Shown here: positions 1 to 12,911 of the stretch, piece by piece | Position numbering within the stretch: the stretch's first letter is position 1 | How the letters are laid out: each line of letters starts with the position of its first letter | DNA from: an uncultured Spirochaetota bacterium | GTDB lineage: Bacteria; Spirochaetota; Spirochaetia; SZUA-6; Fen-1364 | Assembly (NCBI GenBank): GCA_963734545.1 | Contig: CAVTHO010000006.1 | Span: 146,537-178,536, forward strand | DNA: 32,000 bases | Reading direction: 5' to 3' | Made by a program: the position numbers and the translations under genes | The notes under the pieces: model-generated | The model's database searches: none | The model's input: only the letters and a program-made list of their open reading frames with translations | What the model was told of the DNA's origin: nothing

Positions 1-1736
1 GCTCAGCCGCCTCGATGAAGCGAGCGTACCCGCGCCGCCGCGCGACGCCGCGCCTGCTCCCCGCCGTGGCGGCAAACACGGCGGGAAGGCCGCCGCAAAG
101 CGGAAGGCGTCCGCCTCCCCGCCCTCTGATTCTCCCGCTTCCGAAGAGCCTGCGCCGGCCCCCGTGCCGCGGCGCGGGGCCGCTCACGACCTGCCGCATC
201 GAGGTGCGCATCGACGGGCGATTCCCGTGAAGCGTACCTGCGGTCATTCCTCGTCAAAGCGCGGCTGGAGCGCATGGGCACGATCCAGGGCACCGATCCG
301 TCGCCGGAGACCCTCAAGGACGCGGACAGCCCCTTTGTCTATGTCGTGACTCTGGATACCCGCGAGGCGCCTGACTCCCTGCCTGCCGCGATCTGTTTCG
401 ACCAGGTATCCGTCGCGCTTGTCGGGCCGGAAGATGAAGCGCCGGACGCAAATGGCTCGGCGGTGCGCCGCCTCCTGCCTCCGCCGTCAAGGATGCGCAC
501 GAGCAGTTCCTGCAGAGCGCGAGACCCGACGAGGTGGTGCGCGTGTCCGTGCAGAAGCTGGACACTCTTCTGAACCTCGTCGGCGAGCTGGTCATCTACA
601 ACTCGGGATTCGTCGCCACCACCCAGCAGCTTCGCGAGCAGTACGGAAAGACCCGCTTCATCTTCGACCTGGAGGAAAAGACAGAAGCCCTCTCCGCGAT
701 CACCCGCGAGCTGCAGGACGGCATCATGAAGGCGCGGATGCTCCCCATCGCCAACGTCTTCAACCGCTTCCGCCGGGTCGTGCGGGACCTGGCAAAGAGG
801 AGCGGCAAGGCGGTCTTCCTGGACGTGGTCGGTGAAGAGACGGAGATCGACAAGAAGGTGATCGACCGGATCGGCGAGCCGCTCGTGCACCTCGTGCGCA
901 ATGCCGTCGATCACGGGCTCGGAGACTGCCGCGCAGCGCGTGGCCGCTGGGCAAGAGCGCCGAGGGGACGATCCGCCTGGGCGCCTACCAGGAGGGAGAT
1001 CACATCTGCATCGAGGTGGCGGACGACGGCCGCGGCCTGGACAAGGAGGCGATACTCAGGAAGGCCCTGGAGAAGGGCCTGATCAGCCGGGAGGAAGCGC
1101 CCTCGGCGAGCGCGGAGCGCATTCTCGGCTTCATTTTCCTGCCGGGGTTCAGCACGGCGCGCATCGTCTCCGACATCTCGGGCCGCGGGGTCGGCATGGA
1201 CGCGGTGAAGCGCGCGGTGGACGAGATGAGCGGCAGCCTTCGGGTACGCTCCACGCCGGGCGCGGGCACCACGGTGACCATCACCCTTCCCCTCACAATG
1301 GCCATCGTCACGGCGGTGCTCGTCGAGGTGGCGGGCTCCACCTATGCCATTCCGCTCTCCGCGGTGCGCGAGATCGTGAAAACCAACGACTCGATACTGA
1401 AGACCGTCGGGAACGCGCCGGGTCATGCTCCTGCGCAACGAAGTCCTCGCTCTCGTCAACCTCGGCAGCGCGCTCGAGGATGAGCGGGCCGAACGGTCCG
1501 AGGAGCTCCAGGCGGGATACCCGATCGTGGTGGTGGACTTCGAGGGCAAGAAGATCGGCCTGGAGGTGGAGAAGATCCACGGCACCCGGGAGGTCGTCAT
1601 CAAGAGTCTGAGCCGCCACTTACCGCGAGGTGGAGGGCCTCATCGGCGCCTCCATCCTCGGCAACGGAAAAATCGCGCTGATCGTGGACGTGGAGACGCT
1701 CATCGGCCTTCATCACCACGACGGCCAGCGGAATAG
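1..1736 (+). CDS. cheA: CheA-type chemotaxis histidine kinase, 5' partial (runs off window), reading frame repeatedly broken in this assembly
   Basis: Fragments in all three + frames join into one CheA. Linker/P2-like part: CRIEVRIDGRFP then EAYLRSFLVKARLERMGTIQGTDP. P3: VRVSVQKLDTLLNLVGELV from 534. P4 HATPase: IGEPLVHLVRNAVDHG, ICIEVADDGRGLD, GRGVGMDAVK, PGAGTTVTITLPLT. P5 CheW-like: STYAIPLSAVREIV, PIVVVDFEGKKIGLEVEKIHGTREVVIK, GNGKIALIVDVETL. Frame switches near 230, 460, 925, 950, 1420 and 1620. The 3' end is uncertain (TAG 1734-1736 in one frame; another frame stays open into cheC). Confidence 0.8.
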
Positions 1737-1783
1737 CGGCCGGCAGGGCAGCGGGCATATTCGAGGAGGCTGCCGCGGCATAC

Positions 1784-10146: not shown

Positions 10147-11379
10147 CGCAGGAGCTCAACCTGAACGCCGGCGAAGGGCAGGGCCGCGACCCGCTGCAGG
10201 AGCAGGCGCACGTCATGGAGGCCGTCAGGCGGCTCGCCGCCGGCGTGGCGCACGACCTCAACAATCTTCTGCTGGTGGTGCAGGGGTATACCGAGATGGC
10301 ACTCGGCGAGAAGGACGCCGGTCCGCACACGCGTGCGCACCTGGCGGAGGTGAGGGACGCGTCGATCCGGGCCGTCTCGCTTGCCGAGGATCTCCTCACC
10401 ATGGGCCAGCGCGGGCACGTCATTCCGCGCATGCTCGAGCTCAATGAATCCATCTCCCGGGTTCTTCCGTCCGTCAGGGCCGAAGCCGCCGACGGCGTAG
10501 AGGTCACGCTTTCCCTGGCGCCGGACCTTCCCCCGATTCTCTCAGATGACGGGCAGATGGCCCGGCTGGTCGCGGCATTCTGCGCACGCGCATGGACGGT
10601 CATGCCGGCCGGGGGCAGGCTCACCATTGGCACGCAGGCCGCGGGACCGGACCCCGCGAAGCAGCGGCGCGTCCTTCTGACCTTTGCCGACACCGGCGTG
10701 CCCGTGCCGGCGGAGCTCCGCGCGCAGCTCTTCGAACCCTTCCTGCCTTTGAAGGCGGACAGCAAGGGACTCGGCCTGGAGCTCTCGGTTGCCTACAGCA
10801 TTGTGCACCGCCTGGGCGGGACCATCGAAGTGGAGAGCCCCCCGCAGGGCGGCACGATATTCGTCATTTCCCTCCCTGCCGGCAACGATGTCGCGGAGGA
10901 GCTCGGCGCCCCGATGCGGCCTTCAATGGAAATGCTCGACGGCGCTCCGCGCGCGTCGAGTCCCGCCGGTGGAGCCGGGGCAGATCATCCTTCTGGCCGA
11001 GGACGACGAGGGGCTGCGCACGCTGGCCTCGAAGACTCTCGCCCGCGAAGGCTACGAGGTGCTCGTGGCGCGCGACGGTCAGGAGGCGGTCGAGCTCTTC
11101 GAGCAGAACAAGGAGGCCATCCGCCTGGCGCTGATCGACGACGTGATGCCGCGCATGGGCGGGCGCGCCGCGCTCGCGCGCATGCACCGGATCCTTCCCG
11201 GTCTTCCGGCCATCCTCTGCACCGGCTACACGTGGAGCCTCGACGGCAAGGCACGGGAGCACGGTGACTTCATCGACATCCTCCCCAAGCCCTGGCAGCC
11301 GCGCGAGCTGCTGCGCACCGTGCGCGAGGCCCTCGAGCCGAGCCGGTCGGCGCTCCCCGGCCGGGTGGACGGTACATGA
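10143..11379 (+). CDS. Hybrid histidine kinase (HisKA-HATPase-REC) without recognisable sensor or TM domain; one frame switch near 10940
   Basis: ATG 10143 overlaps the cyclase stop (ATGA). The H-box LAAGVAHDLNNLLLVVQGYTE lies about 35 aa from the start. ATPase: FEPFLPLKADSKGLGLELSVAYSIVHRLGGTIEVES, GGTIFVISLP. The receiver is in the next frame (ORF 10789..11379): IILLAEDDEGLR, LALIDDVMPRMGG, ILPKPW. Confidence 0.82.
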
Positions 11380-12911
11380 GCAAAGGCGCGAGAATCCTCT
11401 ATATCGAGGATGACCCGGGGGTTGCGCGCCTGGTGCGGATGAAGCTCGAGGCCGAAGGCTACGGGGTGGAGGTCTGCTCCACGAGCCGGGAAGGGCTCGC
11501 GCTGTTCGACGAGGCCATGCACGACATGGTGGTCGTCGACTATCAGCTTCCGGACGGAAACGGCCTGCAGGTCCTCGAGGCGCTCGTCGGCCGCGGCACC
11601 GGAGTCCCCGTCATCATCGCGACCGGCGCGGGCAGCGAGGAGATTGCGGTGCGTGCCATGAAGCTGGGCGCCGCCGACTACATCAACAAGGAAAGCTACG
11701 ACAAGTTCTTCCACATGCTGCCGTCGGTGATCGAAAAGGCGCTCCGCCAGCACGAGCTGGAGCGCCAGAAACAGCGCGCGGAAGCAGAGCTGCGCGAGAG
11801 CGAGGAACGGCTTCGCTCGATCCTGGCCTCGATCGACGACGCGGTGATGGTGACCGACAAGGCGGGTCTGTTCGTTGCCGCCCGGGGACCGGGCATGCGC
11901 GGCGACACCGCCGCGGCGCTGTCAGAGGTCATCGGCGCCACTTTCCGCGACGTGTTCCCGCCGGGCGTGGCCGAGCATTTCGAGGAGGCATTCGCCGCCG
12001 TGCAGGCCACCGACAGGGTGGAGCAGTTCGACTACTGCCTGCCTCCCTCGGGAGACGAGGTCTGGTTCAATGCGAAGGTGTCGCCGCTCAAGGACGTGCG
12101 GGGAGGCTTCGCGGGCGTCACCATCGTGGCGCGGGACATCACGGCGCGCAAGCAGACCGAGGACCAGCTCCGCCTGGCCACGCTCGCCGCGGATACGCAC
12201 AGCCGGGCGAAGACCGACCTCCTGGCGGGGATGTCGCACGAGCTGCGCACGCCGCTCACGGCCATCATCGGCTACACGGAAATCCTCCTCTACGAGTACT
12301 TCGGCGCGGTGAACGACAGGCAGCGGCAGCAGCTCGATGTCGTGCTGGAGTGCTCCCGGCATCTTCTGGATCTCATCAACGACATCCTCGACATCTCGAA
12401 GATCGAATCCGGGAAGACGGAGCTGGAGCTGGGGAGGGTGCGCATCGTCGAATTGCTCACGCACACACTCGTGCTTCTCAAGGAGAACGCGTCCGGGCAG
12501 AAGATCAGAATCGATACCCGGGTCCCGCACGAGCTCGCGTCCCTGGAGCTCACCGCGGACGAGCGCAGGGTCAAGCAGGTGCTCTTCAACCTGCTCTCGA
12601 ACGCCCTGAAGTTCACACCCACGGGGGGACGCATCGAGGTGGGGATGAGCACGCAGAACGGCGCGCTCGCCATCAGCGTCTCCGACACGGGCATCGGGAT
12701 CCCCCCGGGAGAGCTGGACAGGATATTCGAGGCTTTCTATCAGATAAAGGGCCGGGCCTCTTCCTCGAAAGCGAGCGGCTCGGGCCTGGGGCTTTCCCTG
12801 GCCAGGCAGATCGTGGAGCTGCACGGAGGCAGGATCTGGGCGGAGAGCGAGGGGGAGGGCAAGGGAAGCACAATCACCTTTACGCTCCCTCTGACGCCGC
12901 CCACCGCATAG
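11376..12911 (+). CDS. REC-PAS-HisKA-HATPase hybrid sensor kinase
   Basis: Intact 511-aa ORF whose ATG overlaps the upstream stop (ATGA). Receiver: ILYIEDDPG, MVVVDYQLPDGNG. Coiled coil followed by PAS: ERLRSILASIDDAVMVTD, VTIVARDITARK. H-box: AGMSHELRTPLTAIIGYTE. ATPase: NLLSNALKFTP, DTGIGIP, GSGLGLSLARQIVELHGG. Confidence 0.92.
   Translation: MSKGARILYIEDDPGVARLVRMKLEAEGYGVEVCSTSREGLALFDEAMHDMVVVDYQLPDGNGLQVLEALVGRGTGVPVIIATGAGSEEIAVRAMKLGAADYINKESYDKFFHMLPSVIEKALRQHELERQKQRAEAELRESEERLRSILASIDDAVMVTDKAGLFVAARGPGMRGDTAAALSEVIGATFRDVFPPGVAEHFEEAFAAVQATDRVEQFDYCLPPSGDEVWFNAKVSPLKDVRGGFAGVTIVARDITARKQTEDQLRLATLAADTHSRAKTDLLAGMSHELRTPLTAIIGYTEILLYEYFGAVNDRQRQQLDVVLECSRHLLDLINDILDISKIESGKTELELGRVRIVELLTHTLVLLKENASGQKIRIDTRVPHELASLELTADERRVKQVLFNLLSNALKFTPTGGRIEVGMSTQNGALAISVSDTGIGIPPGELDRIFEAFYQIKGRASSSKASGSGLGLSLARQIVELHGGRIWAESEGEGKGSTITFTLPLTPPTA

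Follow-up and report, generated by a model that had tools for sequence, protein, structure and literature searches.

A conserved chemotaxis operon with predicted second-messenger components in uncultured Spirochaetia

The DNA analysed here, hereafter the window, is a stretch of 32,000 nucleotides from an uncultured Spirochaetota bacterium (Spirochaetia; SZUA-6; Fen-1364), taken from positions 146,537 to 178,536 of contig CAVTHO010000006.1 in GenBank assembly GCA_963734545.1. Its first ten genes form a chemotaxis (che) cluster into which genes for cyclic-nucleotide proteins are built. Sequence comparison with related loci (numbered with an L) indicates that the cluster is the 3′ four-fifths of a predicted sigma-54-dependent chemotaxis operon that is conserved in an uncultured clade of Spirochaetia.

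Window genes were called by six-frame analysis combined with Pfam scans, which reproduced the domains and plus-strand gene order of an earlier, sequence-only reading of the window. The cluster opens with a 5′-truncated gene for a CheA protein fused to CheC (positions 1 to 2572), followed by cheD, encoding a deamidase and CheC partner (2574 to 3062; Pfam CheD, E=4e-29), the methyltransferase gene cheR (3059 to 3917; CheR_N and CheR, E=3e-59) and cheB, encoding a receiver (REC) and methylesterase (3914 to 4999; Response_reg and CheB_methylest, E=3e-66). Behind these lie comFB, encoding a stand-alone protein of 96 amino acids (aa) predicted to be a cyclic dinucleotide (c-di-NMP) receptor (4996 to 5286; PF10719), a gene for a REC-HD-GYP response regulator (5308 to 6417; Response_reg and HD_5, E=8e-36) and cheW (6436 to 6945; Pfam CheW, E=3e-41). 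The last three genes encode a HEAT-repeat protein with a class III adenylate cyclase domain (HEAT-cyclase; 6979 to 10146; Pfam HEAT_2 and Guanylate_cyc), a hybrid HisKA-HATPase-REC kinase without a recognisable sensor domain (HK-REC; 10143 to 11379; Pfam) and a REC-PAS-HisKA-HATPase histidine kinase (REC-PAS-HK; 11376 to 12911; Pfam) that is 94% identical to its counterpart in L004. The earlier count of eleven genes becomes ten, its separate CheC-like unit belonging to cheA, plus a phosphatase gene farther downstream that is described at the end. All of the overlaps noted before are there (ATGA at 3059, 4996, 10143 and 11376; GTGA at 3914), the other gaps measure 1 to 33 nt, and this tight packing is consistent with the claim of one transcription unit. 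A consensus scan of positions 1 to 14200 found no sigma-70-like promoter, and the short intergenic gaps of positions 1 to 12911 hold no terminator-like site on the plus strand, the single plus-strand hit lying within cheR. An Rfam scan of the window and of L013 for riboswitches, such as those for cyclic di-GMP (c-di-GMP), found none.

The window opens at about codon 120 of cheA, with the Hpt (P1) domain off its edge, and the remainder encodes P2, dimerisation (P3), HATPase (P4) and CheW-like (P5) domains, an Ala/Pro-rich linker and a CheC phosphatase domain. Relatives with intact frames carry the same series, Hpt included, in a single open reading frame (ORF) of 930 to 1039 aa (969 to 1012 aa in L013 and L004, at positions 3669 to 6578 and 1937 to 4870 of those loci), and the window is continuous here apart from frameshifts, so that what had been taken for a cheC-like gene is the C-terminal domain of CheA. 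This domain matches Thermotoga maritima CheC (1XKR/2F9Z; E=5e-15) and has retained the two E-x2-N-x22-P phosphatase motifs. CheA::CheC fusions occur in more than 120 sequence clusters in public data, 46 to 91% identical, whose named sources are all Spirochaetia, and we found no paper describing the fusion. PDB matches of the CheA part reach 2e-107, with scores that do not separate T. maritima from Escherichia coli CheA. Together with CheW, CheR and CheB, these CheA domains make up a Che core. CheD is 92% identical to that of L004 and has the GSCV and AHVML motifs in its translation, and CheB is 90.6% identical to the L004 protein over all 361 aa.

What precedes cheA can be read from the relatives. 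In L004 it is the 3′ end of a gene for a bacterial enhancer-binding protein (bEBP; REC-sigma54-HTH), a 178-nt spacer, and genes for a 120-aa single-domain receiver and CheX; L013 has the same arrangement, with a single receiver and the C terminus of a methyl-accepting chemotaxis protein (MCP) further upstream. Each of the eight relatives for which upstream sequence exists has cheY and cheX directly 5′ of cheA; these relatives are Spirochaetia metagenome-assembled genomes (MAGs) with CheA identities of 47 to 91%. The best PDB match of their CheY is T. maritima CheY (1TMY, E=3e-43; the CheY-3 entry 3HZH gives 1.7e-21), the protein keeps the acidic pocket as well as the Thr, the Lys and the aromatic switch residue, and the top 120 clusters of a homologue search are all orthologues, 78 to 93% identical. 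One CheY match, P0295, is labelled Desulfobacterales and was considered as spread outside the Spirochaetia; we rejected this, the match being a 3.2-kb contig with the same cheY-cheX-cheA start that is most likely mis-binned.

Since the window starts inside cheA and cheY-cheX precede cheA in eight of eight relatives, the lack of a CheY in the window is an edge effect. The sequence-only reading was correct that the window holds neither an MCP nor a single-domain CheY, and a canonical CheY just upstream, which it had named as refuting if it is the preferred CheA substrate, was found in every relative with upstream sequence; its suggestion that cyclic-nucleotide enzymes are the output in place of a CheY/flagellar switch is an artefact of the window edge. 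The canonical CheY and the CheX phosphatase are joined by the CheC domain and CheD into a complete set, and the part of the suggestion that stands is that nucleotide components are built into a conserved che operon. With a canonical CheY present, phosphorylated CheY (CheY-P) stays an output; it is most likely the primary one, and it probably acts on the flagellar motor. We propose that this is a che operon with a canonical CheY output to which a c-di-GMP receptor, a phosphodiesterase (PDE) and an adenylate cyclase have been added, and that it probably couples chemosensing to second messengers, the motility output not being replaced. In this proposal as a whole, a motility-type che operon with a built-in second-messenger module, we have moderate confidence.

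The spacer of L004 (positions 781 to 958 of that locus) holds TGGCACGGCGCTTGCA, a textbook -24/-12 sigma-54 promoter. A TGGCAY-N5-TTGCW sequence occurs 45 to 120 nt 5′ of cheY in all of the eight loci but L011, where it reads TGGCAC-N5-TTGCG. This promoter is seen in the relatives only, the window ending short of it, and the bEBP gene (REC-Sigma54_activat-HTH_8) adjoins it there. As pieced together from these sequences, the full order is [bEBP]-sigma-54 promoter-cheY-cheX-cheA::cheC-cheD-cheR-cheB-comFB-(REC-HD-GYP)-cheW-(HEAT-adenylate cyclase-HK-REC)-REC-PAS-HK. Spacers equivalent to that of L004 are found in L013 (2504 to 2716), L005 and L007 to L012, and the spacer also has repeated TGTTCC/GGAACA half-sites, for example TGTTCCAGCAGCTGTTCCATGCACGGAACACTTGTTCCG in L004, which could be binding sites of the bEBP.

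Several window genes have broken reading frames, and one explanation is that the operon is a decaying pseudogene cluster here, with real frameshifts and a system that does not function in this genome. We compared indels against three independent related assemblies, namely L013 (a JGI metagenome contig of 90% nucleotide identity), L005 (a MAG) and L004 (a MAG and, to judge by the contig name NODE_..., a short-read assembly), and counted about 20 that are specific to the window. In cheA::cheC they lie at ~170, 215, 465, 474, 927, 948, ~1410, 1622, 1728 and 2426; no long ORF spans the first 2.6 kb, and the CheA domains appear successively in frames 1, 3, 2, 3, 1 and 2 when followed along the intact L004 protein. 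One at ~3094 shifts the frame of cheR after 12 codons, six fall in the N-terminal part of the HEAT-cyclase gene (7078, 7145, 7149, 7285, 7404 and 7540), where they create an in-frame stop at 7477, and one at ~10959 changes the frame of the HK-REC gene from 3 to 1 relative to L004. Frame-breaking indels in four of ten genes, with a stop besides, are what a pseudogene would present, but every one of these indels is a +1 insertion, with no deletion among them. The substitution load is not raised along with the indel load: the CheA frame pieces are 87 to 92% identical to the L004 protein, and the intact neighbours cheR and cheB are 90% identical. JGI contigs L001 to L003, 97% identical to the window, are free of the insertions between 7079 and 7568, and the exact CheW protein of the window is present on three JGI metagenome contigs.

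Nor is the damage confined to the operon, as unrelated metabolic genes at 18 to 26 kb are also chimeric or split. Three minus-strand ORFs join domains of unrelated enzymes: 2-Hacid_dh and AFOR_N at 18590 to 21697, FGGY and GPI at 21820 to 23820, and GFO_IDH_MocA and ADH_N at 24355 to 25875. These chimeras at 18.5 to 26 kb suggest the same frame errors as in the operon. Taking the +1-only indels, the unreduced protein identity, the hits in unrelated genes and the insertion-free 97%-identical contigs together, we infer that the frameshifts are most likely sequencing or assembly errors of an insertion-biased, unpolished assembly. Pseudogene decay was rejected as their cause on the first three of these grounds, and we consider it highly improbable.

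The arrangement was followed through relatives from two sides. On the CheA side, we inspected the genomic context of CheA::CheC homologues at 66, 63, 57, 51, 49 and 47% identity (L007 to L012), a sample that includes the complete 4.84-Mb genome CP070696.1. All six loci have bEBP ... cheY-cheX-cheA::cheC-cheD-cheR-cheB-comFB-REC-HD-GYP-cheW. The HEAT-cyclase gene lies directly 3′ of cheW in L004, L005 and L007 to L009; in L010 and L011 an Hsp70/DnaJ-HEAT/GrpE trio comes between the two, and in L012 an MCP gene follows cheW before the contig ends. HK-REC and REC-PAS-HK are retained in closer relatives. The co-conservation of ComFB, REC-HD-GYP and HEAT-cyclase with the che genes, whose absence the sequence-only reading had named as refuting, thus holds down to 47% CheA identity.

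Starting from ComFB, we scanned metagenomes with eight aligned orthologues and recovered 80 loci, which were annotated by tblastn with the operon proteins; L013 to L039 come from peat and wetland samples. Every locus whose ComFB is 50 to 96% identical to that of L004 is che-linked (31 of 31), with cheB immediately upstream in 20 of the 22 that have enough sequence. No che gene was found near any of the 49 loci with ComFB of 30 to 44% identity, 17 of which have at least 3 kb on both sides. Where at least 1.3 kb is available downstream, REC-HD-GYP follows ComFB in 14 of 17 loci, and the eight loci reached through CheA or the cyclase all have it. HEAT-cyclase is present in nine of the 11 ComFB-side loci whose downstream sequence reaches 3.2 kb or more. 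HK-REC comes after the cyclase in 13 loci, and in the ComFB-side set REC-HD-GYP and HEAT-cyclase occur both or neither, with no discordant locus. In L020, L026, L030 and L041, comFB leads straight to cheW and REC-HD-GYP is absent; L026 (1 to 4810) is without REC-HD-GYP, HEAT-cyclase and HK-REC and keeps REC-PAS-HK and a downstream phosphatase gene. By this survey ComFB is the constant member and REC-HD-GYP, HEAT-cyclase and HK-REC are a facultative set found in ~80% of loci, and the second-messenger enzymes look like a separable cassette. Two loci of GC content 0.42 to 0.43, L036 and L037, are compact or rearranged, with cheY directly before comFB or with cheY, a short CheW-domain fragment, cheD and comFB; these may be deletion variants or assembly chimeras.

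The steady place of REC-HD-GYP between cheB and cheW, in those 14 of 17 metagenome loci and in all eight others, fits a different wiring, close to the one favoured by the sequence-only reading. The operon would then be a non-motility pathway of the alternative cellular functions (ACF) type with the cyclic-nucleotide enzymes as its main outputs, in which CheA phosphorylates REC-HD-GYP directly and so controls c-di-GMP hydrolysis, the cyclase and ComFB act downstream, and CheY and CheX have no role beyond that of a phosphate sink or of an adaptor for the HEAT-cyclase. CheA does have a P2 docking domain, and sigma-54 dependence with a dedicated bEBP looks like conditional expression of an accessory system rather than housekeeping chemotaxis. 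Precedents exist in Wsp, where the CheA-like WspE phosphorylates the REC-GGDEF protein WspR (PMC8846402), and in the Che7 system of Myxococcus xanthus, where a single-domain CheY acts on a HEAT protein (PMC11514114). A canonical T. maritima-like CheY, held to 78 to 93% identity over 120 clusters and accompanied by CheX, CheC and CheD, three accessory functions directed at CheY-P, is however a motility toolkit. L026, L020, L030 and L041 keep the che core and ComFB without REC-HD-GYP and the cyclase, so that these enzymes cannot be the essential output, and the receiver of REC-HD-GYP is the least CheY- or CheB-like of the operon (see below). We regard an ACF-type pathway as possible, if rather unlikely, and retain a motility-type operon with an added second-messenger module as our preferred interpretation.

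The ComFB protein matches PF10719 with 48.6 bits (cut-off 25), and its AlphaFold2 (AF2) model (pLDDT 90.5) has as best Foldseek matches Bacillus subtilis ComFB (BsComFB; 4WAI, probability 1.00) and the CdgR-c-di-GMP complex (8HJA, 0.97). A profile search for the subfamily recovered 299 clusters. ComFB proteins, recognised between 2023 and 2025 as receptors of c-di-GMP or c-di-AMP, act on motility by a route that is unknown, and an effect on chemotaxis is not excluded by the authors (PMC12448109, PMC12265714). c-di-GMP binding extends to the ComFB of Treponema denticola (PMC12448109, PMC12265714), and in B. subtilis ComFB bound to c-di-GMP inhibits flagellar function (PMC12265714). ComFB-CheR fusions exist, and comFB often lies near flagellar or pilus genes (PMC12448109). 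The residues of BsComFB that contact c-di-GMP are Asp33, Ala36, Leu37, Asn40, Arg/Lys41, Val47 and Tyr55 (PMC12448109). In the che-linked proteins D43, A46 and Y56 never vary and N50 hardly does, the equivalents of BsComFB Asp33, Ala36, Asn40 and Tyr46 being conserved, and the Leu37 position is taken by W, Y or F.

The che-linked ComFB shares with the ComFB/CdgR family (B. subtilis ComFB, Synechocystis Slr1970, T. denticola ComFB) the PF10719 domain, the fold and several c-di-GMP-contact and dimerisation residues. It is nevertheless a separate subfamily, at most 44 to 46% identical to the non-che ComFB relatives recovered, with an H-x-H-H motif and His in place of Arg/Lys41, and it lacks the C-terminal Ig-like domain of T. 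denticola-type spirochaete ComFB. The papers on the ComFB family hold no description of comFB inside a che operon (PMC12448109, PMC12265714). Two motifs of the che-linked proteins are invariant, C35-x-C37-x2-C40 and, at the C terminus, H92-x-H94-H95, and a metal site could be built from the two. In B. subtilis ComFB, Zn is bound by four Cys residues. One product, P0203 (167 aa, from a 13311-bp ENA contig), comprises a CheB methylesterase C terminus and ComFB; the fusion may be natural, or the stop codon in the ATGA overlap may have been missed.

In the relatives the HEAT-cyclase is one protein of ~1020 to 1058 aa, with an uninterrupted ORF in L001 to L003 and L004, in which a HEAT region of ~760 aa is fused to the class III cyclase domain. 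The latter matches PF00211 with 66.8 bits (cut-off 21.9), and its best PDB matches are 3MR7 and Ma1120 (E~1e-18), with CyaB among further adenylate cyclase matches. Five orthologues conserve both metal-binding Asp residues, the ATP-specifying Lys/Asp pair and the transition-state Asn and Arg, within the motifs FFSDIxGYS, KRMGDGH and (G)D(V/I)LGNxVNIAxRLES, so that the catalytic residues are intact and conserved. A HEAT-cyclase of 34% identity occurs in another spirochaete MAG, L006, in the order Hsp70-DnaJ-[HEAT-cyclase]-MCP-PAS-HK-REC-bEBP-MCP. Our first impression that this locus is unconnected with chemotaxis was overturned by the two flanking MCP genes, which appear to link the cyclase family to chemoreceptors even outside a che operon. 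In the stretch at 2429 to 14346 of L006 the MCP that follows the cyclase is of the dCache_3 type, and no cheA lies within the 15 kb examined. Immediately 5′ of the HEAT-cyclase, genes for an Hsp70-like protein (~505 aa) and a J-domain protein occur in three divergent loci, L010 (17749 to 20498), L011 (14798 to 17553) and L006 (198 to 2298); the J-domain protein of L010 and L011 has HEAT repeats, and these two loci also encode a GrpE-like protein. This hints at a chaperone module dedicated to the HEAT-cyclase.

The HD-GYP domain matches PF13487 with 123.8 bits (cut-off 27.2), and its best PDB match is the c-di-GMP phosphodiesterase PmGH (4MCW, E=3e-34). The second-best match is a 3′3′-cGAMP-specific HD-GYP protein (5Z7C), which makes the identity of the substrate uncertain. 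Six orthologues have the HD, HHE-x-DG-x-GYP and D-x2-DA motifs unchanged, in line with the earlier statement that HD and GYP are intact, and the receiver keeps its acidic pocket (E-D), its phospho-acceptor D (DILFLDMNLPD) and its T (VMTG) and K (TKPF) residues in all six. We predict from these motifs that REC-HD-GYP is a phosphorylation-gated c-di-GMP phosphodiesterase.

Pairwise comparison of the receivers of the unit (n=7), a similarity that does not fix partner specificity, showed those of CheY and CheB to be mutually closest (55 to 64 bits), whereas the HD-GYP receiver is nearest to those of the bEBP (67 bits) and REC-PAS-HK (53 bits) and furthest from CheY and CheB (29 to 33 bits); its receiver matches in the PDB are of the NtrC type. 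Except for L011, every locus with sufficient flanking sequence has a gene for at least one orthodox histidine kinase (HK) within the operon or next to it. HK-REC is absent together with REC-HD-GYP and the cyclase in L026, which makes an orthodox kinase an equally good candidate phosphodonor, and the donor of REC-HD-GYP could be either CheA or the co-encoded HK-REC.

The same observations can be read as two pathways running side by side with nothing but a promoter in common. An ordinary chemotaxis system would run from MCP through CheA to CheY, with adaptation by CheR, CheB, CheC, CheD and CheX, and an orthodox two-component branch from HK-REC and/or REC-PAS-HK to REC-HD-GYP and the bEBP, with ComFB and the cyclase belonging to this second branch. 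The genes would then be linked through co-expression under sigma-54, and no signal would pass directly between the Che proteins and the nucleotide enzymes. The receiver similarities, the presence of at least one orthodox kinase at nearly every locus, the joint absence from L026 and the overlap of the cyclase stop with the HK-REC start (ATGA at 10143) all fit such a division. The gene order fits it less well, in that ComFB and REC-HD-GYP sit between cheB and cheW and not with the terminal kinases, a position fixed over 47 to 91% CheA identity. Moreover, the che-linked ComFB subfamily occurs only in che operons (31 of 31) and is translationally coupled to cheB, which is hard to explain by co-expression alone, and the distant HEAT-cyclase homologue is again flanked by MCP genes. 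We judge separate pathways to be unlikely.

If, as we prefer, the second-messenger module works with the chemotaxis pathway, ComFB would read the level of c-di-GMP (or c-di-AMP) and relay it to the chemotaxis machinery, and its translational coupling to CheB makes the adaptation enzymes or the array its likeliest targets. REC-HD-GYP, switched through phosphorylation by CheA or the sensor-less HK-REC, would lower c-di-GMP and so close a loop between receptor activity and c-di-GMP. The HEAT-cyclase would add a cyclic AMP (cAMP) output, perhaps under the control of a receiver that binds the HEAT domain, as with CheY7 and Cpc7 in Myxococcus, and REC-PAS-HK may feed the upstream bEBP, by which the operon would regulate itself. 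A fuller version, in which the array both writes and reads cyclic nucleotides, with CheA switching HD-GYP directly or via HK-REC, CheY-P switching the HEAT-cyclase and a dedicated, array-associated ComFB dimer sensing the c-di-GMP that results and retuning CheB/CheR adaptation, is a tentative suggestion to which we give a low probability. If true, it would amount to second-messenger feedback in a closed loop within a chemotaxis pathway for motility, and would give a ComFB protein its first defined molecular target.

Several points weigh against a motility-type operon wired in this way. The HD-GYP receiver is the least like those of the known CheA substrates in the operon, which weakens the link from CheA to the PDE. 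At the Arg/Lys41 contact position ComFB has His (Arg in one orthologue only) and Tyr55 is not alignable, which leaves its ligand and affinity uncertain. An MCP adjoins only some of the loci: its C terminus lies 2.3 kb upstream of cheY in L013, and an MCP gene comes directly after cheW in L012 and L041, with none among the called genes within 10 kb in L007 to L011. The window cheA, cyclase and HK-REC genes are frameshifted, and real shifts would mean a dead operon in this genome. That CheY acts on a flagellar motor is an assumption, and whatever goes beyond gene content and conservation is our inference.

Chemotaxis of the T. maritima/B. subtilis type is class F1 of the Wuichet-Zhulin scheme, with CheC, CheD and, in spirochaetes, CheX as auxiliaries. 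Such systems share with the present operon the T. maritima-like CheY (3e-43) and CheC (5e-15), the adjacent CheD, and CheX, CheR, CheB and CheW, and the operon differs from them in the fusion of CheC to the CheA C terminus, in sigma-54 dependence and in the inserted ComFB/REC-HD-GYP/HEAT-cyclase genes. By gene content and the relatives of CheY and CheC, it is best read as putatively of a Thermotoga/Bacillus-like flagellar class, the framework of Che classification being that described in bioRxiv 10.1101/2022.05.07.491037. The Wsp system of Pseudomonas (ACF) resembles it in having a Che-like cluster (MCP, CheW, CheA, CheR and CheB homologues) with a receiver-fused c-di-GMP enzyme, and it is the established precedent for chemosensory control of c-di-GMP (PMC8846402). 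Wsp, however, makes c-di-GMP through the GGDEF protein WspR, whereas an HD-GYP hydrolase is encoded here, and its WspE is a CheA-REC hybrid in a system without single-domain CheY, CheX, CheC, CheD, ComFB or adenylate cyclase. The CheA described here has CheC instead of a REC domain, and CheY, CheX, CheC and CheD are all present, unlike in ACF or Wsp-like systems, where a CheA-REC hybrid serves an output enzyme fused to the sole receiver and CheY, CheZ, CheC and CheX are absent.

In M. xanthus Che7 the HEAT protein Cpc7 is encoded in a che operon with a single-domain CheY, CheY7, to which it binds (PMC11514114, citing Darnell et al. 2014). Here the HEAT region is fused to a catalytically intact class III cyclase, an interaction with CheY is conjecture, and Cpc7 was compared by description only. 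RpfC/RpfG, PmGH (4MCW) and PA4781 (4R8Z) have the same REC-HD-GYP architecture with the full HD and HHE..DG.GYP metal set, but these proteins have orthodox sensor kinases as partners and are not known to be embedded in che operons. In Pseudomonas aeruginosa the PilZ protein MapZ acts on CheR1, a case of a small c-di-GMP receptor acting on the chemotaxis adaptation machinery. This may serve as a functional analogy for ComFB, although MapZ has a PilZ fold and is encoded outside the che operon.

Our literature search found no description of a che operon with HD-GYP, ComFB or HEAT-cyclase, earlier mention in genomic surveys being possible, and a che operon with built-in c-di-GMP and cAMP components appears to be an undescribed arrangement and a well-supported hypothesis. 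A 2022 census of sensory inputs names only ACF- and type IV pili (Tfp)-class chemosensory systems as modulators of c-di-GMP, and experimentally established control of this kind is limited to the Wsp type (ACF) and the Tfp type, acting via diguanylate cyclases (PMC8846402). If our interpretation is correct, a phosphorylation-gated HD-GYP and a HEAT-adenylate cyclase in one operon would add hydrolysis and cAMP to the second-messenger outputs of chemosensory systems. A ComFB subfamily found only with che genes and coupled to cheB gives a concrete list of targets for ComFB action and a defined context for ComFB function. The value of the finding is limited in that the organisms are uncultured, the canonical CheY output remains and the wiring is hypothetical.

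Beyond the ten genes, a low-molecular-weight phosphotyrosine phosphatase (LMW-PTP/ArsC-like; 13082 to 13510, plus strand; Pfam LMWPc) is encoded 170 nt 3′ of the REC-PAS-HK gene and is often syntenic. It follows REC-PAS-HK in L004 (15544 to 15993), L005, L013 (~17302) and L026 (4373 to 4810), and the unit may end with it. Farther downstream, positions 13969 to 17986 of the minus strand encode two regulators, MarR and DeoR, together with a CdhD-like protein and a radical SAM/SPASM protein that has a MazE/AbrB-like domain at its N terminus. L004 and L005 show synteny with this block, which seems to have no connection with the che operon.

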